64,000 nucleotides of DNA from Tequatrovirus BCH953P2. Both the position numbers and the translations under genes were made by a program. Shown one piece after another: positions 1,768-48,492 of the stretch (the first letter of the stretch is position 1; each line of letters begins with the position of its first letter). The stretch lies in the sequence record OZ035785.1, one strand, 5' to 3'. Below the pieces are notes generated by a model that saw only the letters and a list, made by a program, of their open reading frames with translations, searched no databases and had not been told where the DNA came from.

Positions 1768-1793
1768 ATTATAACACAATAAATTTAGGCATT
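1768..1793 (-). promoter_or_regulatory. candidate MotA-dependent middle promoter upstream of uvsX
   Basis: Minus strand reads TGCCTAA (MotA-box-like), 11 nt spacer, TATAAT. Confidence 0.4.
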
Positions 1794-2634
1794 AATCAAC
1801 TGCTATTGGATGAATAGCATTAAACTTATGAAATGCTTCTGATTTTTCTTTACGCGAAACACACATGCGAAGAACCTTTAACGGCTCGTCTTCTTCACCC
1901 AACGATTTTCGTTTTTCAATATTAGAAGTTTTCCAACGAGCTTGCTCTGGAAACTCTCTATTGATTTGTTCAAGCGCTCTATTATGTTTAGAATTACTGC
2001 GAATTGAACTGCACCCGCCAGGAGCTTGTGCTTTTCCAGATACAACCAGATATTTGAACAAGGCCAAATGCGGATAACCTTGATTAATTAAATTGAGAAA
2101 TGCATACATATCTTCGCATAAATCAATTTTTCCATACCCAATTTGTTCTGTGGTAAGTTTTCCGAGGTCATACCATGTATTCGTGAATCCGTATGAATTT
2201 TCACGATAATTACCCCAAGATGAAGTAATTTTAAAAATTGGTAGACGAGCATGACCGTGATAATACCCGCAATCCATGGCATCTTCAACGTATTGAATCA
2301 ATTCATAGAACTGTTCACGAGTTAATTGATTAATTTTATCTACACATCGGCGATCATCTCTTTTTCGCATTGAACTCATACGAATAGTAGTATCATCGTC
2401 AATCATCCAGATTCGTTGACCTGCATACATATCAGTAATTGCTTTACGAGTACCGGCAATTCCATTTACATCATCAGGAATAGTTACAATTTTAGCTCTA
2501 GACCCATAGGCATCATAATAAGCTTTTTCTTCGTGTTCACGCACTACAATATGTGGTTCATAATCAGTCGGAAACATATCAAGGGCAGAAACTGCCCCTA
2601 CACGTTGATAGCTTGGAATTACGAATTGAATCAT
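1792..2634 (-). CDS. glycosyltransferase with DxD motif at the beta-gt locus (candidate beta-glucosyl-HMC-alpha-glucosyltransferase)
   Basis: 280 aa; IWMIDDD motif typical of GT-A enzymes; occupies the uvsX-to-42 position where T4 has 351 aa beta-gt; unrelated in sequence to T4 beta-gt. Confidence 0.5.
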   Translation of the reverse strand: MIQFVIPSYQRVGAVSALDMFPTDYEPHIVVREHEEKAYYDAYGSRAKIVTIPDDVNGIAGTRKAITDMYAGQRIWMIDDDTTIRMSSMRKRDDRRCVDKINQLTREQFYELIQYVEDAMDCGYYHGHARLPIFKITSSWGNYRENSYGFTNTWYDLGKLTTEQIGYGKIDLCEDMYAFLNLINQGYPHLALFKYLVVSGKAQAPGGCSSIRSNSKHNRALEQINREFPEQARWKTSNIEKRKSLGEEDEPLKVLRMCVSRKEKSEAFHKFNAIHPIAVD

Positions 2635-3271
2635 TTAAGTGCCTTACATTTGTCAAAATGGTATCTTGTCATATTTGGCCCACGTCCTTTTAGTCCGCAA
2701 TGCGGACATATTTTTTCTATCAAATTATGAGGTTTTCCTTTACGATTTTTAGACATCGTTTCTTTAATTATTTTAGCTTTTTCTGCGCCAAAAATTTCTT
2801 CATAAGTTTTACCAGAATTTTCCTTTGCTCGATTTATAATTCCATATGCCTGCTCATTTTTACCATACATTGGATTACCTTCGCCTTTCATTCTTTTAGA
2901 ATGATCAGGACGCTTGATTCCACGAAAGGCATTTCCGCACTTATATCTTTCTTCTGGAGATAGTTTTTACCGTACATTCCATTTAATTTGCCTGGAAAAC
3001 TTCCTCCCCATGCTTCATTCTTTAAATTATATGAATCCGGACAATTAGCAGCATCTAAACAAGTTAAAATAATTTCTTCAACCTGTCTAAACATTGGTCC
3101 TTCATATAATATTTCTTTATTAAAGGATTTTATTCCATATTTCTTTTTAGCATGTTGCCAAACTACACCCGAACCATCATAATTCGGGTTGTGACCATCA
3201 TGACTTCCTATATACCACTTTTTAGTTTTAGGATGTTTATACTTATAAACATGTGGCACATTTACTTCCAT
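2631..3271 (-). pseudogene. seg-like GIY-YIG homing endonuclease split by a frameshift
   Basis: N-terminal ORF (2888-3271) has VYKYKH...WYIGS GIY-YIG motifs then GKLNGMYGKN; the NUMOD3-like continuation (SPEERYK...GEGNPMYGK) lies in another frame (2631-2891); frames switch near an A5 run around 2962-2968. Confidence 0.6.
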
Positions 3272-4002
3272 TTTCCAGTATAATCCTTTTTAGCAATATG
3301 AGTCTCACCGGTGTTCCACCAATGGTCAACTAAATAAAACTGATTTTCGTACACATGAAGACTTCCAACGTTCCATATAATAGAACCTGCTTTATATTGC
3401 CGCGATGGGTCGCCTGCATTCAAATCAGATACTAATTTATCTAGTACGTATTTTTGCCAAGCATAATCATTACGATAGCCTGCCCAGCAATCATTGCTTC
3501 TCATGCTAACAACCGCATTGACTTTCTTATCACGAATCAGGTACTGTACTGTATTAGTACACATGAAATCTGACATACCATCTTTATTGTAGTCAAATTG
3601 CATGGATGGACGAGTATAAATCATGATACCACGTCGAGAATCAGGATTTTGACCAAGTTCAGCTAAACACATGTCATATTGAGCATAGTTATCTTCTGAC
3701 CAGATAGCCCAACCATAATTCGAGTTAATTTCGCCTTTAGAAGATGCTACCTGCTGCCAAATCTTTGGTGTTTCACCTGGAATATCTTTAACAAACAAGC
3801 TCTTAGATTTATACCATTCAAGTTCGCGCTGAATGTATTCATCATTAAGAGCGCCAAAAATAAACGGTTCATCTGCTACAAATGATGCGCCAATAATTTC
3901 AATAGTTTTAACACCGGTTTTATCAACTACGAAATCTTTTTCTTTTAATGCAAGCCCCAAATGAAGACGGATTTCTTCAACTGTCATAGAGTCACTAATC
4001 AT
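3262..4002 (-). CDS. 42: dCMP hydroxymethylase
   Basis: 246 aa thymidylate-synthase-fold protein at the conserved position downstream of the gt locus. Confidence 0.93.
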   Translation of the reverse strand: MISDSMTVEEIRLHLGLALKEKDFVVDKTGVKTIEIIGASFVADEPFIFGALNDEYIQRELEWYKSKSLFVKDIPGETPKIWQQVASSKGEINSNYGWAIWSEDNYAQYDMCLAELGQNPDSRRGIMIYTRPSMQFDYNKDGMSDFMCTNTVQYLIRDKKVNAVVSMRSNDCWAGYRNDYAWQKYVLDKLVSDLNAGDPSRQYKAGSIIWNVGSLHVYENQFYLVDHWWNTGETHIAKKDYTGKWK

Positions 4003-4805: not shown

Positions 4806-5042
4806 TCAAATGCAAGTAGTAATTACTCCAGTAGTGCTTATGCAGGTATTACCCATTTGCACACCTAAAGATCCATTTGTATTCACATGAAGATTATCAT
4901 CAATTTTAACTGATATTTTACCATTAGTGTGAATAACGGTGCTAGATTCAATCACAGGTTGAGTATCATTTTCAACACTAACAAATGGAACTGCTGCTAA
5001 TGCAACTAAACACACTGCTAAGCAACCATAAACAATTTTCAT
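4806..5042 (-). CDS. small secreted/periplasmic protein
   Basis: Signal-peptide-like N-terminus MKIVYGCLAVCLVALAAVPFVSV; track ORF starts at TTG, likely ATG at 5042 with GGAG upstream. Confidence 0.5.
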   Translation of the reverse strand: MKIVYGCLAVCLVALAAVPFVSVENDTQPVIESSTVIHTNGKISVKIDDNLHVNTNGSLGVQMGNTCISTTGVITTCI

Positions 5043-5078
5043 TTCATTCTCCAAATCCGTATCAGTAGTTGATAGTTG

Positions 5079-15905: not shown

Positions 15906-16099
15906 TATAGGAGCTGAAGCTCCTATCCGCATAATACACCATACAGAGGCTCATTAGAGCTTCTAAATTTTATGCGCTTATATGTTATAGTTCCTTCTGC
16001 TTTAGCTTTATCATGAGACTCTTTAAAGAGTCTCATGATTTCTACTTTAGAGGAACGAATTTTATTATAATCTATTTCAGAAGTCTGGGTGTTCATCTT

Positions 16100-16306
16100 T
16101 CATAACTGCCACCATTTTTTGACTTGATAAGAATCAACCCACACTTTCATATTAGGGTCTGCTCTTACAATAGGAGGATTAACTTCTTTAATTGAACTAT
16201 CATGGTATTCTTTTTCAGAAATTTTCACACAAAGATGACCATTCAAAGATTCAGTAAATCCTGCATTAATTTTAAGACGCTTGAATTTTACGTGTGTAAG
16301 CATCAA
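16100..16306 (-). CDS. hypothetical protein
   Basis: 68 aa ORF. Confidence 0.4.
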   Translation of the reverse strand: MMLTHVKFKRLKINAGFTESLNGHLCVKISEKEYHDSSIKEVNPPIVRADPNMKVWVDSYQVKKWWQL

Positions 16307-30805: not shown

Positions 30806-31774
30806 TTATTTCAGAAGAGTAACCTCAGCGATTTCTTCCCAACCGTTTTTGTCGGTCATAATAAAGTCAGCAAGATAAAGAGCAGTACGCAGTGAAACAT
30901 TGCGTAAACGATTAACATTGACTTTCATCCATGATAATGCTTTATAAGTTTCTTCATCAGAAAGACCGCGCTTTTGCATCATGTCGGTTGAAAGAATAAC
31001 ATCTTCAACCCTGACCATAATTTCTTCATTAGTGTGAACACCCAAATCTAAATAAACTGAGCGGGACACTAATGCTTGTAAATGTGGAGCAAGTTTAGTA
31101 CCACGGTCTAATTCGCGGTCAATGTCAACGTTTGTGATAAAAACAATCGTTCCTTTAAATTCAAACTCACGCTCAATGCCTTTTTCTTCTAAGTAAGAAG
31201 ATGCAGTGCTCCAGCAGACTTTACGGGTCTCTCCAGTGTCCAGAGCAGCTTTTAGAAGATTAAGAATGTCCATATCAGAGAAAACATCCACATCATCAAT
31301 CAAAAGGACAGAATTCTCTTCACGATTATTCCAAAGCTGTTCATAAAGACCAATACCAGAGATTTTACCATTAATGCTTTTATATTCAATGTATCCAATA
31401 TCATTTGCTTTATTTAAAGCTTTATCTAAAGAATGCGTTTTACCAATACCTGCTGCACCAGAGATAATTAATGAACGAATGTTTCCGTTAATAATACCAT
31501 TCGTCATCATTCCCATAACATTAAATCTTTTATTAATGCGGGTTTTCATATCTTCATACGATTCTTTAACTTCTTCAACTTTTACACCATCATATGAAAT
31601 GTCTGATTTGTAAACCCAAACACCGCGACGTTTACCGTCAATTTCAACAAAAACTTTACCATCTCCTTGTGCATCTACCGGAGCATTATCTGGGAACCAT
31701 TCACCTAAGAGCTCAAAAGTTCCAGAGATTTCTTTACCGAAGTAGATACCCTTATTGATAGTTACAGTTTTCAT
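30806..31774 (-). CDS. P-loop NTPase
   Basis: Walker A GAAGIGKT, Walker B LLIDDVD; track start is TTG, likely ATG at 31774. Confidence 0.6.
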   Translation of the reverse strand: MKTVTINKGIYFGKEISGTFELLGEWFPDNAPVDAQGDGKVFVEIDGKRRGVWVYKSDISYDGVKVEEVKESYEDMKTRINKRFNVMGMMTNGIINGNIRSLIISGAAGIGKTHSLDKALNKANDIGYIEYKSINGKISGIGLYEQLWNNREENSVLLIDDVDVFSDMDILNLLKAALDTGETRKVCWSTASSYLEEKGIEREFEFKGTIVFITNVDIDRELDRGTKLAPHLQALVSRSVYLDLGVHTNEEIMVRVEDVILSTDMMQKRGLSDEETYKALSWMKVNVNRLRNVSLRTALYLADFIMTDKNGWEEIAEVTLLK

Positions 31775-31808
31775 TTTATTCTCCAAATCTGTATCAGTTG
31801 ATAGTTGT

Positions 31809-31838
31809 ATAGTACCATAAAGCTTTATGCTTGTAAAC
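31809..31838 (-). promoter_or_regulatory. T4-type early promoter within a repeated promoter cassette
   Basis: Minus strand GTTTAC, 18 nt, TACTAT; cassette near-identical to 5055-5110 and 46463-46545. Confidence 0.6.
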
Positions 31839-31862
31839 CGTTTTGTGAAAAATTTTTGAAAT

Positions 31863-31886
31863 AAAAAAGGGAGCCCGAAGGCTCCC
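31863..31886 (-). terminator. intrinsic terminator with UUCG loop
   Basis: Minus strand GGGAGCCUUCGGGCUCCC followed by UUUUUU, right after the nucleotidyltransferase stop. Confidence 0.6.
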
Positions 31887-31888
31887 TA

Positions 31889-32902
31889 TCATTTATAATA
31901 ACTTCGGTGGTTTTCAAGATAAACCCTCTCAAGGAAGTCATCCCAGAAACCCATGTCTACTTTTTGCTGCATACCGTTCTTAGAAGCTTCAGTAGATGCT
32001 GCTTCTACTTGATCGACCACATCTTCCAAAAACTCTTGAACCATTTTAAATGGATGTTTACCCAACTTCACGTCGAGAATAAATGGAGCGTCTTGAAGTG
32101 GATAAACTAAGTCACCAGTTTTGTAAATTTCCAATAGTTGAAGTCCACCACGGCAGGCATGGCTCAGAGCTTTCCAATCAATGCCTTCATTGGCTTCGGC
32201 CTTACGAGCACGTTCACCGTATTCAGCATCTAATTTGTTCAGTGACTGCTTAAGCTCAATAAGAGAAAGCGTTGTCTGATATTTACGACCCAACACAGTG
32301 TAGAACGTTTGTGGGCCTGTTTTCTCATGATTATGGAACACCCATTCACAGAATTCGTTTTCTGGAAGACGATGCTTAATATCTTCAACTTTAGTGCGAC
32401 GCTGCTTAATAGAACCATCTTCTTGGTAATCAACCCATTGCTCAGGGATTTGATTAACTACTTTCAATACATCACGTAATGCAGCCAAACGAGAACCCTT
32501 GACACCGTATTTAGAAGCTTGCTTGCGGACATATCCTAAATATGATTTCATGTTAGTCGTATAAAAACGAGAACGGTTGTCTTGAATAAACTTCCACACA
32601 TCAGGCAAATCAGATTTAACCACTAGTTCAGGTGGAGTATGAAGCATATCCAATGCTACAGTTTCACCATCTGCTGCTAATTTAAAGAAATACTTAAGAC
32701 TATACAATTCGTGGTCAATATCATCTTTAGTGTTTTTAGATGATGTGTTGTTAGTGTTTTTACTCATATGCTCTTTAACATTTCCGATAAGAATATCACG
32801 AGCAGGAGGAACAAAAATTTCTTTAAAATCTACATCAGATTCTGGGGTAGAAGTTCCATAAAGATGACTACCAAAATAGCTTTTCATTACTGTTTTCATC
32901 AT
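31889..32902 (-). CDS. nucleotidyltransferase-fold protein (Pol-beta superfamily motif)
   Basis: 337 aa; N-terminal GS-x10-DVD (FGSHLYGTSTPESDVDF) typical of the NTase fold, followed by a helical C-terminal region. Confidence 0.5.
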   Translation of the reverse strand: MMKTVMKSYFGSHLYGTSTPESDVDFKEIFVPPARDILIGNVKEHMSKNTNNTSSKNTKDDIDHELYSLKYFFKLAADGETVALDMLHTPPELVVKSDLPDVWKFIQDNRSRFYTTNMKSYLGYVRKQASKYGVKGSRLAALRDVLKVVNQIPEQWVDYQEDGSIKQRRTKVEDIKHRLPENEFCEWVFHNHEKTGPQTFYTVLGRKYQTTLSLIELKQSLNKLDAEYGERARKAEANEGIDWKALSHACRGGLQLLEIYKTGDLVYPLQDAPFILDVKLGKHPFKMVQEFLEDVVDQVEAASTEASKNGMQQKVDMGFWDDFLERVYLENHRSYYK

Positions 32903-33360
32903 TCAGCCTTATATTCAATAACAGGACATACTTTAGCTTTACGAGCTTTTAAAAATTCGACGATAATAGATTTCTTGGGTTGAATAGGAGGTAAACCTTT
33001 ATACGCCCTATCAATATTTTCTACATGTAAAGCATAATCCTTTTTCCATTTATAATCTTTATATTTTTCATGCAGTTGTACAGGAATAACAAATGAACCG
33101 ATAATAAGTAAAACAAGCAAAATGGCAAGTATAAATGCTGATGGAATAAGAGTCCATAAACTACCAAAAATAAGCCATTTCTGTATGATTTCTGCGCAGA
33201 TGATAGTTAGACCTACGAGTATAGTACATCCGAAAAAAGAAACGAAAAATGTAGGGATAACAATAGACCAAAAGTATGCGCACAGCGTCTTAGGTCGTTG
33301 CCATTCATCGTTAAACAATTTGAATAATTTATAGTGCCAAGAGTTTTCATTAATAATCAT
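32899..33360 (-). CDS. membrane protein with two predicted TM helices
   Basis: 153 aa with two long hydrophobic stretches. Confidence 0.5.
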   Translation of the reverse strand: MIINENSWHYKLFKLFNDEWQRPKTLCAYFWSIVIPTFFVSFFGCTILVGLTIICAEIIQKWLIFGSLWTLIPSAFILAILLVLLIIGSFVIPVQLHEKYKDYKWKKDYALHVENIDRAYKGLPPIQPKKSIIVEFLKARKAKVCPVIEYKAE

Positions 33361-33362
33361 AA

Positions 33363-33884
33363 TTATCCTTTCATTGAAGGCGTAACGGTTGTTAAATACT
33401 TAATCATAGCTTCAGCTTCTGATTTTGATAATGAAATTTCTCCATTGTTTTGACGAATAGAAATAAAATCCGGATGACGGTCACCACCAGCTTTTAAAAC
33501 ACACATATAAGTATCAGTTTCACCTTCAATATTTGAAATGATTGAAGCAGTTCCGCATGAATGTGGTTTTTGATAAATCAATACAGCTTTTCTTCCACCA
33601 TTTGACTGCTCATAGGCTTTTAATACATCAAACAAATCAGTTCTTTTATCAATAGCTAAGATGTTATTTTCATCTTCAATGTTAAATCCTTCGGATACTT
33701 CATAAAGCGTTACCCATAAATCACCGATGTCAATAACAGCATTTACTTTTCCACGGCTTTCAAGAGTATGACAAATTTTCTTGATTTCATCATAACTCAT
33801 TTTAATAATATCATCTCCTTGAATAAGGAAGATGTCATTTTTAAATTCAACGCGAATTAAACCGCTTCCACTTGAAATAAACAT
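33363..33884 (-). CDS. hypothetical protein, paralog of the next gene
   Basis: 173 aa; C-terminus SKSEAEAMIKYLTTVTPSMKG resembles NKDEAIALKTYLDSVIPTMISK of 33891-34424. Confidence 0.5.
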   Translation of the reverse strand: MFISSGSGLIRVEFKNDIFLIQGDDIIKMSYDEIKKICHTLESRGKVNAVIDIGDLWVTLYEVSEGFNIEDENNILAIDKRTDLFDVLKAYEQSNGGRKAVLIYQKPHSCGTASIISNIEGETDTYMCVLKAGGDRHPDFISIRQNNGEISLSKSEAEAMIKYLTTVTPSMKG

Positions 33885-33890
33885 ATTTCC

Positions 33891-34424
33891 TCACTTTGAA
33901 ATCATAGTTGGAATGACAGAATCAAGATAAGTCTTTAGCGCAATAGCTTCGTCTTTGTTTAATGTAATGATATGTGATCGAAAATCGTCAATTTGACGAA
34001 TAGATACTACATCTCCCTCTTCATAGCATTTTGACACATTTAAAATAGTTTCATCATTCTGATTACAGGAGTTAGTAATAATAGCATTACATTTTTTAAA
34101 CCATTTTAAATTATGTTTTCTTTTAGTAGAATCATAAAAATATTTAATCTTAGTTATAAAATTATCCCAATTATTAATTGATAAGCACATTGACTCACTT
34201 TTAATATTAAATCCTGGGCATGAAGAATAAAAATGAATTTTGTGCTCATCATTGATGCTTACTATTTTATCAGTATAAGCATATTCAATTTGGGTTAAAC
34301 GAACAATTTCACTAGGCGTAAAATATAACATATCATCTTCTTGCGTCAAACGATACATATTATTTACTTTTTCTATAGCCAATTCACCAAAAAGTGAACT
34401 AACTTCTAATACTAATCGTTTCAT
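33891..34424 (-). CDS. hypothetical protein, paralog of the previous gene
   Basis: 177 aa; see paralog note. Confidence 0.5.
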   Translation of the reverse strand: MKRLVLEVSSLFGELAIEKVNNMYRLTQEDDMLYFTPSEIVRLTQIEYAYTDKIVSINDEHKIHFYSSCPGFNIKSESMCLSINNWDNFITKIKYFYDSTKRKHNLKWFKKCNAIITNSCNQNDETILNVSKCYEEGDVVSIRQIDDFRSHIITLNKDEAIALKTYLDSVIPTMISK

Positions 34425-34425
34425 A

Positions 34426-34704
34426 TTAATCCTTTTTATTTGCGCTGATTTGTTCTAAAATTTTAGAGTATTCCTTTTTATCGGATTTACGTACAATCGA
34501 TACACAATAAGGCATACTGTCGGTGTCTTTAATAAAACGTTCTAAATGGCACTTTAATAAAATTTCTGGATTATAAAGAGTATACATCAAATTCCCAGTC
34601 GCTCCGCGATATTGACAAATTTCCACGGATTTGACATCATTCCATAAATTTGTTAAAACTAAGTCACCTACTTCTAATTTAGGAAAACTCATATTATTCA
34701 CCAA
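34426..34704 (-). CDS. hypothetical protein
   Basis: 92 aa ORF. Confidence 0.45.
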   Translation of the reverse strand: MVNNMSFPKLEVGDLVLTNLWNDVKSVEICQYRGATGNLMYTLYNPEILLKCHLERFIKDTDSMPYCVSIVRKSDKKEYSKILEQISANKKD

Positions 34705-34876
34705 TTAAAGTTTCAACAAAATTCACTAAATCGTTCTGGCGAGCGTCAACCTGTTTTTCATAGAAATCAGCAGCGCCATCATTTACTGCGTGATAAGCCA
34801 CATCATTTAAATCGGTATCGGCTTCACGTAAGTCATGAATAAGGTCCATCAACTTATTGGCTTGTTCACGGGTCAT
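34694..34876 (-). CDS. small acidic helical protein (paralog family)
   Basis: 60 aa; MTREQANKLMDLIHDL... Confidence 0.45.
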   Translation of the reverse strand: MTREQANKLMDLIHDLREADTDLNDVAYHAVNDGAADFYEKQVDARQNDLVNFVETLIGE

Positions 34877-35008
34877 TACATACTCCTTTGAATAATATCA
34901 ATAATGTTGTTCACCAGATTATAGGTAAACAAAGGATAATTATATTGAATCATCACATACACAACAAACAAAATTTTCATTCTCTTCTCCCCAGCAGTTG
35001 ACAAGATT

Positions 35009-35038
35009 ACTATACCATAACCTTATCAACTTGTAAAC
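35009..35038 (-). promoter_or_regulatory. T4-type early promoter
   Basis: Minus strand GTTTAC, 18 nt, TATAGT. Confidence 0.5.
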
Positions 35039-35040
35039 CA

Positions 35041-35214
35041 TTAAATGACGTTTTCAATAAAATTCTGAAGCTTTGTGTGAGCATCAACCATGATTTTCAT
35101 TTCTTCCTTTGCGAAAGCTGTACCTCTTTCCCGAGCAGAATACTCATAGTCAGAAACTGCATTAGCATATTCTTCAATTAGCTTCATTAAAAACATCTGC
35201 TTTTCAGTTTTCAT
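35041..35214 (-). CDS. small protein
   Basis: 57 aa ORF MKTEKQMFLMKLIEEYANAVSDYEYS...; not in ORF track. Confidence 0.35.
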   Translation of the reverse strand: MKTEKQMFLMKLIEEYANAVSDYEYSARERGTAFAKEEMKIMVDAHTKLQNFIENVI

Positions 35215-35398
35215 TATTCCACCTAATCATTTCAAGATATTGAACTAATTTAGCTTTAGATTTATCCAAATCCCTTTTAGCTGCTTCTATACCATCGTAT
35301 GAATATCCTTCACAATGCTCAACTGCTAATTGATATGAATCTATTTCAATATCACGTGCTAATTTAATGATTTTTTCAAACTGATCGCATGTTAGCAT
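35204..35398 (-). CDS. small acidic helical protein (paralog family)
   Basis: 64 aa. Confidence 0.4.
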   Translation of the reverse strand: MLTCDQFEKIIKLARDIEIDSYQLAVEHCEGYSYDGIEAAKRDLDKSKAKLVQYLEMIRWNNEN

Positions 35399-35400
35399 AC

Positions 35401-35604
35401 TTACACTCTCGTATTATGATCGATAATTTCATCAAGAAACATATCTAACGCTTCTAAAGCATTATCCACTTTAGTTTCAAAGTCTTTAATGCCTTTATTC
35501 GAAATACCCGATGAATACCAAGCAAAGTTAATGCGCTCCTCATCTGCTTTACGAATTAAAGCTACCAATTCCTTAATTTTATCAGCTTGTTCGATACTAA
35601 TCAT
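35401..35604 (-). CDS. small acidic helical protein (paralog family)
   Basis: Track ORF trimmed to [14 protein letters not shown]; TAATG overlap with upstream gene. Confidence 0.4.
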   Translation of the reverse strand: MISIEQADKIKELVALIRKADEERINFAWYSSGISNKGIKDFETKVDNALEALDMFLDEIIDHNTRV

Positions 35605-35792
35605 TATTCCACCACATATGAAAGAGAGAATATTGCACACGCCATGTGAGTTGCAACTTCATCACACATATTATAACGTTTCTTAAGAAGTTCTACAAGT
35701 TCTTCACTAGTAACTTCATCCATGTCGACGAAAAAATCACCATTAATGATGACGTAGATATTTCCTTCTTGATTGAGTGCTTCAATTTTCAT
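35604..35792 (-). CDS. small protein
   Basis: 62 aa from [11 protein letters not shown]; track ORF 35604-35939 is over-extended across an early promoter. Confidence 0.45.
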
Positions 35793-35820
35793 GATGTTCT
35801 CCTCTTTATCCGATGGTTGT

Positions 35821-48385: not shown

Positions 48386-48472
48386 TGGTGGGGAGTGGTG
48401 GAGTCGAACCACCCGAGTCGCAATGACAATGAATTTACAGTCCACCCCGCTACCCCTACCGGATAACTCCCC
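48386..48472 (-). tRNA. type II tRNA-like, anticodon GUA (Tyr)
   Basis: GGGGAGU/ACUCCCC acceptor stem, 3 bp D stem, long variable arm, T loop TTCGACT, CCA encoded; anticodon stem has two G-U pairs. Confidence 0.5.
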
Positions 48473-48492
48473 CCCCCCCCTAATTCTTAATT

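Follow-up and report, generated by a model that had tools for sequence, protein, structure and literature searches.

The stretch of DNA analysed here, 64,000 nucleotides of Tequatrovirus BCH953P2 (sequence record OZ035785.1; hereafter the window), contains a T-even (Tequatrovirus) segment with the minus-strand genes uvsX (533-1714), βα-gt, a split seg gene (2631-3271), gene 42, 42.1, imm, imm.1 and the DNA polymerase gene, in that order. The closest match to BCH953P2 in the phage collection was 97.7% identical over 25 kb, and the same phage was absent among the records. The seg gene and its two neighbours comprise the following features:

1792-2634, minus strand: βα-gt, encoding β-glucosyl-HMC-α-glucosyltransferase (280 aa, Pfam TAGT), the right neighbour of seg
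2631-2891, minus strand: ORF-C, 86 aa, with Met128 of the intact protein as its first residue; upstream of this ATG the frame stays open as far as 2966
2631-2966, minus strand: second reading frame, corresponding to residues 103-213 of the intact protein, with NUMOD3-like repeats, helices and a C-terminal zinc finger
2646-2708, minus strand: zinc-finger module Cys189-x2-Cys192...His205...Cys209 (CPHC...NMTRYHFDKC), recognized from alignments and the structural model
2711-2716, minus strand: second A6 run within seg, which is A7 in phage Shinka, truncating the finger there
2888-3271, minus strand: ORF-N, 127 aa; residues 1-102 comprise an intact GIY-YIG domain plus the first NUMOD3-like turn, and the remaining 25 codons are an out-of-frame tail; its TGA stop is at 2888-2890
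2964-2968, minus strand: A5 homopolymer (plus strand TTTTT) at which the frame shifts; the run is A6 in intact alleles and A7 in PYps5T
2996-3271, minus strand: GIY-YIG catalytic domain, residues 1 to ~92, with key residues Y9 (VYKY), Y20-I-G22, E64/E65 and N82
3262-3294, minus strand: final 33 nt of gene 42 in a recoded version that includes the seg start codon (GGAAAATGG)
3262-4002, minus strand: gene 42, encoding dCMP hydroxymethylase, the left neighbour of seg; its last ~200 nt fall within a low-diversity tract

The seg stop codon overlaps the βα-gt start codon (ATGA), and an AAGG Shine-Dalgarno sequence for βα-gt lies within seg at 2642-2645. A search around seg for the T4 late promoter (TATAAATA) found none within several kb, while sigma-70-like and terminator-like matches near the gene occurred at chance level only. 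Transcription of seg is presumably read-through from gene 42.

ORF-N and ORF-C are encoded on the minus strand in different frames and are colinear with the single 213-aa ORF of BF15 and similar phages. Alignment with four relatives revealed that the 641 nt of the BCH953P2 seg gene differ from the 642-nt BF15 ORF by one base, A5 instead of A6. In BF15 and vB_SsoM_113, the A6 run is read as GGT AAA AAA CTA (G-K-K-L). The protein sequence of each half matches the corresponding part of an intact protein, present on >200 contigs, at 100% identity, so the split is no chance pattern. Alignment to intact seg genes had been proposed as a check in an earlier reading made from the sequence alone (the sequence-only reading). 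In this alignment both ORFs fit one 213-aa protein (residues 1-102 and 103-213) and not two full-length proteins, and on this comparison we regard ORF-N and ORF-C as parts of a single protein. The same reading had placed the switch of frames between a catalytic half and a DNA-binding half, near an A5 run around 2962-2968. The different frames and the run were confirmed, with the run at 2964-2968 (at most two bases away), but the break does not fall exactly between the two domains: it lies ~10 residues beyond the nuclease domain, within the first NUMOD3-like repeat, whose turn in ORF-N is GKLNGMYGK. The ATG of ORF-C overlaps the TGA of ORF-N (ATGA), and from this arrangement it is conceivable that ORF-C is made by reinitiation. 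Phages REP2 and REP3 carry an annotated product identical to ORF-N, and in REP2 ORF-C is annotated as a separate CDS.

We then assigned the protein to a family. A single-sequence Pfam scan gave no GIY-YIG (PF01541) match and scored NUMOD3 (PF07460) at 17.9-18.1 bits, below the 20.4 cut-off; membership was therefore established through the family profile and the predicted fold. PHROGs placed the protein in the PHROG 314 homing endonuclease family (1.8e-31), with ORF-N matching PHROG 314 (3.9e-20) and the second frame (residues 103-213) matching PHROG 314/655. A database search retrieved 69 homologues, a few of which have precomputed PF01541 or PF19835 matches and many of which have NUMOD3 (PF07460) matches. 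In alignments of 29-57 homologues, Y20, G22 and N82 are invariant and Y9, Y31, S34 and G35 nearly invariant. The columns of the C189-x2-C192...H205...C209 finger, which is modelled as a β-hairpin and a helix, are likewise invariant or nearly so. The family profile aligned over the whole I-TevI catalytic domain (1MK0, 1LN0; E=0.0025), pairing Y9 (VYKY) and Y20 (WYIG) with I-TevI Y6 and Y17, and E64/E65 (FRxxEExIL helix) and the invariant N82 (SYNL) with the catalytic I-TevI E75 and N90. The I-TevI segment with Arg27, the Arg that is conserved after the YIG motif in the GIY-YIG superfamily, stands opposite a gap in the profile-to-1MK0 alignment, and residues 23-60 of the family contain no invariant Arg; the same is true of T4 SegA-E, so it seems to be a trait of the Seg subgroup. 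The AlphaFold model (pLDDT 88.9) has a β-β-α-β-α core (strands 7-12, 19-24 and 51-57; helices 36-45 and 61-72) that includes the three-stranded antiparallel sheet of the GIY-YIG fold, and its best PDB fold matches were 1MK0/1LN0 (prob 1.0, TM 0.64, rmsd 2.8 Å).

When compared with the seven T4 Seg proteins, the N-terminal domain alone aligned, showing 31-36% identity to SegA-E (E 1e-12 to 1e-6); SegC was the best match (36%, 1.8e-12), followed by SegB, SegD, SegA and SegE. Together with the colinear alignment to the intact ORF, the PHROG assignment, the profile and the fold, these matches bear out the claim of a frameshift-split, seg-like GIY-YIG endonuclease. Judged by sequence and model, we are dealing with a GIY-YIG homing endonuclease of the free-standing Seg type that is not an orthologue of any of T4 SegA-G. 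Two records label it as T4 SegD or SegE; we rejected this identity, the similarity being limited to the N-terminal domain at 31-36%.

With T4 SegA-E the protein shares the N-terminal motif series YxY...YIGxH...Y-GSG...KYG...E...YN and a free-standing gene that sits between conserved genes and is optional among relatives. In contrast, its C-terminal half, with NUMOD3-like repeats and a Cys2-His-Cys finger, cannot be aligned to theirs. The insertion site differs as well: the T4 42/gt junction has no seg gene, and T4 segA is on the other side of β-gt. I-TevI has the same GIY-YIG catalytic fold and a modular build, with the nuclease domain tied through a linker and zinc finger to DNA-binding elements (PMC2988022). 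However, I-TevI is intron-encoded (T4 td intron) and its Arg27 region has no counterpart here, whereas this Seg protein has its finger at the very C-terminal end, and no helix-turn-helix was recognized in it.

A lesion of a single base in a homopolymer, in a gene that otherwise is identical to intact alleles, could be a sequencing or assembly error, in which case the phage would truly have an intact A6 gene. This was one of three options raised in the sequence-only reading. Moreover, the sole contig that is 100% identical to the window, ERR12949624 (A5, 5,088 nt), may share reads with the window genome. However, the same A5 was assembled in at least three other distinct phages, from other laboratories and runs. 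The A/T runs of the window number 72 at a length of six and 327 at a length of five, and no other conserved long ORF is broken across ~50 kb. Over ~50 kb of comparison with Shinka, the few 1-nt indels are located at gene ends, between genes or in short unnamed ORFs, and the sole ones inside a long conserved ORF are the two in this seg gene. We therefore consider an error unlikely, and on these comparisons the A5 allele is probably real.

Some other places in the window also differ in length from Shinka. An 82-aa ORF between imm.1 and gene 43 (4806-5054, minus strand) has a C3 versus C4 difference at 4855, such that BCH953P2 and Shinka would read this ORF differently. At 15923-16306 (minus strand), adjacent ORFs of 57 and 68 aa lie 3 nt apart on the same strand with a G3/G2 difference from Shinka at 16087, and may be another small split or variable gene. 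A ~4.7-kb block at 31105-35818 (ORFs of 92-337 aa) is a presence/absence block without counterpart at this position in Shinka. Finally, a run of twelve C at 48469-48480, in a tRNA-gene region, is unusual for an AT-rich genome and could be length-variable or error-prone; Shinka has four C then A there (8-nt alignment gap).

We next examined the A run among relatives. About 74 of the 77 related Tequatrovirus records have A6 and one intact ORF. Among the 60 records listed of the 77 with seg, the gene is 642 nt long in 57, 641 nt in REP2 and REP3 and 643 nt in Shinka. A 90-nt probe over the A5 site matched exactly only REP2 and REP3 among phage records, and a larger protein collection had the exact 127-aa product on nine contigs, versus >200 for intact forms. 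IMG/VR contained a single close relative, with A6, and so added little to the allele counts. Apart from ERR12949624, the flanks of the A5 carriers REP2/REP3, GCA_033877295.1, SRR26820293 and SRR35864830 are merely 96-98% identical to the window (SRR35864830 97.4%; REP3 and GCA_033877295.1 ~97.8%; SRR26820293 ~96.1%). Four seg haplotypes with slight differences carry A5, and those variants linked to it that were checked, 3185A and 2785T, occur with A6 too. Given both observations, recurrent slippage is at least as likely as an A5 allele that arose once and then spread. The several haplotypes could mean that A5 is still spreading, which would be unexpected for a dead gene by itself; they can equally be explained by recurrent slippage or ordinary recombination.

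Other breaks of the gene also involve A tracts. Yersinia phage PYps5T has one product ending in GKKTISRRKI and one starting with MECTVKKLSPEE, a pattern that fits A7 at the same run, and Shinka has A7 in the second A6 run (2711-2716). A homologue with 65% identity, from a further T4-like phage, has lost one A from an A5 run and so consists of two pieces of 125 + 86 aa with the same ATGA overlap. From these several length variants, run-length change in A tracts is the recurrent breakage route of this gene family. The pattern agrees with T4 rII, where A6 runs are classical hot spots of spontaneous frameshifts.

The A5 allele might nevertheless be expressed if ribosomes shifted by -1 on U AAA AAC or the polymerase slipped on the A run, which would give a small quantity of full-length endonuclease from a down-regulated live gene. 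The shift needed is indeed -1, A AAC permits A-site re-pairing, as in the A6C of IS1, and A5 is found on several flanking haplotypes. The programmed -1 frameshift of IS1 insA-insB' offers a parallel, since there too a C comes directly after an A run and the two frames would be joined by a -1 shift. It differs in its longer run (A6, against A5 here), and at the seg gene no stimulatory element turned up and relatives are normally unsplit. The heptamer U AAA AAC departs from X XXY YYZ, with a P-site codon unable to re-pair properly (AAA to UAA). A search for a stimulatory RNA structure downstream of the A run found none, as the 90 nt following the run fold about as stably as shuffled sequence (z = -0.05). 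In most alleles (A6) the frame is continuous, and the split is not kept in homologues of 58-71% identity, which are single ORFs that have GRI, GRK or GKK codons at this point and lack a conserved A run. Five As are also too few for efficient transcriptional slippage. Thus ribosomal slippage, the second option of the sequence-only reading, found no support, and continued expression of the full-length enzyme by either route appears very improbable.

A further reading is that the two pieces function separately, a 127-aa nuclease protein and an 86-aa DNA-binding protein made by ATGA reinitiation, for example in a site-protecting or regulatory role. The overlap of the ORF-N stop with the Met128 ATG would allow this, and the independent split in the 65%-identical homologue gives pieces of nearly the same size (125 + 86 aa) with the same overlap. 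As both splits are 1-nt deletions, however, they lead into the same frame and to the same TGA, and the coincidence of sizes is largely mechanical. There is no Shine-Dalgarno sequence ahead of the ORF-C ATG, the A7 (PYps5T) and Shinka alleles break the gene differently, and the isolated I-TevI catalytic domain has no specific activity. We give separate function of the pieces very little weight.

We then asked how the gene is distributed at this junction, which the sequence-only reading had taken for a past homing site. The βα-gt/seg/42 stretch was matched by 510 records: 77 contain all three parts, ~390 have gene 42 and βα-gt abutting, and ~35 have gene 42 only, like T4 with its β-gt. The seg gene is therefore optional at the 42/βα-gt junction, where it is present in ~16% of βα-gt phages with precise boundaries; in the seg-less phages T2, RB3 and T4_ev151 the gene 42 stop overlaps the βα-gt start (ATGA). 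The tail of the gene 42 product reads IAKKDYTGKWK in seg carriers versus IVKKDYNGEWK in seg-less phages, and 10 of the 33 nt differ. Across seven distinct seg-carrying haplotypes, seg has a nucleotide diversity of 0.39%, and the adjoining 173 nt at the end of gene 42 one of 0.99%. Values for the remainder of gene 42 (4.4%) and for βα-gt (4.8-5.8%) are far higher, and toward βα-gt the rise occurs within a few bases of the seg stop. We read this diversity trough as the footprint of an element that has recently spread across diverged genomes, taking the gene 42 end along. As the trough covers the end of gene 42, it suggests a cut site on the gene 42 side.

More distant homologues occupy the same position. 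Those with 65-71% identity, from Yersinia phage MHG19 and three metagenomic T4-like contigs, start inside the last gene 42 codons, with a KKDYxGKW tail, and are followed by a T4-type β-gt (351 aa), by a pair of 276-aa and 358-aa proteins or by uvsX directly. In the pair, the 276-aa protein has no Pfam match and its 358-aa partner is β-gt-like. The presence/absence pattern, the trough and the homologues found at the same gene 42 end next to different glycosyltransferase genes uphold the homing-site claim. The sequence-only reading had added that such a site fits a glycosyltransferase swap beside it. A homing site next to a swappable gene is reasonable, but seg alone does not explain the swap, and because most βα-gt phages are seg-less we infer the link only tentatively.

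Two sequences bear on the surroundings of this junction. T4_ev151 (1270-1570), which is seg-less, is identical to the window in gene 42 until ~15 nt before the insertion point and then has the seg-less tail; it may show the unoccupied target within an otherwise matching gene 42, or a case of seg loss. In the Logan contig SRR26820293 (3001-5150), βα-gt is flanked on both sides, by the A5-split seg gene toward gene 42 and by a 221-aa segA-like GIY-YIG gene toward uvsX; the latter is missing from the window.

We consider it likely that the locus holds an ordinary Seg-family GIY-YIG homing endonuclease gene, recently inactivated by an A6-to-A5 loss. The proposed history begins with an intact 213-aa gene, which would have been inserted with its start in the last gene 42 codons and its stop overlapping the βα-gt start. 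By analogy with the T4 Segs, in mixed infections the intact enzyme would cut the DNA of seg-less phages close to the gene 42 end, and recombinational double-strand-break repair from seg-carrying genomes would then copy in seg together with ~200 nt of gene 42. Homing by double-strand-break repair has been shown for T4 SegB and reviewed for other Segs (PMC2330249, PMC2988022). In BCH953P2, replication slippage in the A6 run would have dropped one A at codon 103, such that translation would end at the 127-aa product, which would keep the nuclease domain and lose the DNA-binding repeats and zinc finger. Since the I-TevI catalytic domain needs a tethered binding domain, a split Seg should lose site-specific cutting, and the A5 gene is most likely dead as a homing element. 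It would thus be at the first step of the decay that is expected once a selfish gene has run out of unoccupied sites. A decaying selfish element, the remaining option of the sequence-only reading, is favoured by the presence of A5 in at least four phage backgrounds, the A7 at the same run and the lack of any other ORF-breaking homopolymer indel over ~50 kb. A precedent exists in vibriophage ICP1, where frameshifts have divided homing endonuclease genes such that nuclease and DNA-binding portions occupy separate ORFs (PMC10448857). In ICP1 gp115-gp116, as here, a frameshift puts the two parts in adjacent ORFs, and these genes vary and are unstable between closely related isolates (PMC10448857); the components differ, being an HNH nuclease and an AP2 DNA-binding domain in another phage.

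A more speculative idea is that the A run acts as a contingency switch, with A5, A6 and A7 interconverting to turn the endonuclease off and on, and with the off state yielding a functional 86-aa DNA-binding fragment through ATGA reinitiation. Were this so, the fragment might shield or regulate the gene 42/glycosyltransferase junction and, with the anchor at the gene 42 end, the element would be a regulated driver of DNA-glycosylation cassette exchange between T-even phages. We hold this to be improbable, and an ordinary inactivated homing endonuclease gene remains our preferred reading. The split is thus a genuine and ordinary feature, while the Seg lineage itself is uncharacterized: our literature search found no paper naming or testing a seg gene at the 42/βα-gt junction.

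As a textbook opening step of selfish-gene decay, the frameshift itself matters little, although annotators should merge or flag ORF-N and ORF-C. The locus is more useful, and of modest interest as a boundary of glycosyltransferase exchange, given that DNA-glycosylation genes decide how T-even phages meet host restriction. The Seg lineage is always on the 3' end of gene 42, and it is followed by four arrangements: βα-gt, a T4-type β-gt, the 276-aa + 358-aa pair or no transferase. This fixed anchor with four arrangements offers a testable case for homing endonucleases as markers, and perhaps drivers, of DNA-glycosylation gene exchange. One Logan sequence, SRR9616336 (1767-4376 of a 175-kb T4-like contig), contains gene 42, the 65%-identical seg gene split into 125 + 86 aa that was described above, and then uvsX directly, without a glycosyltransferase.
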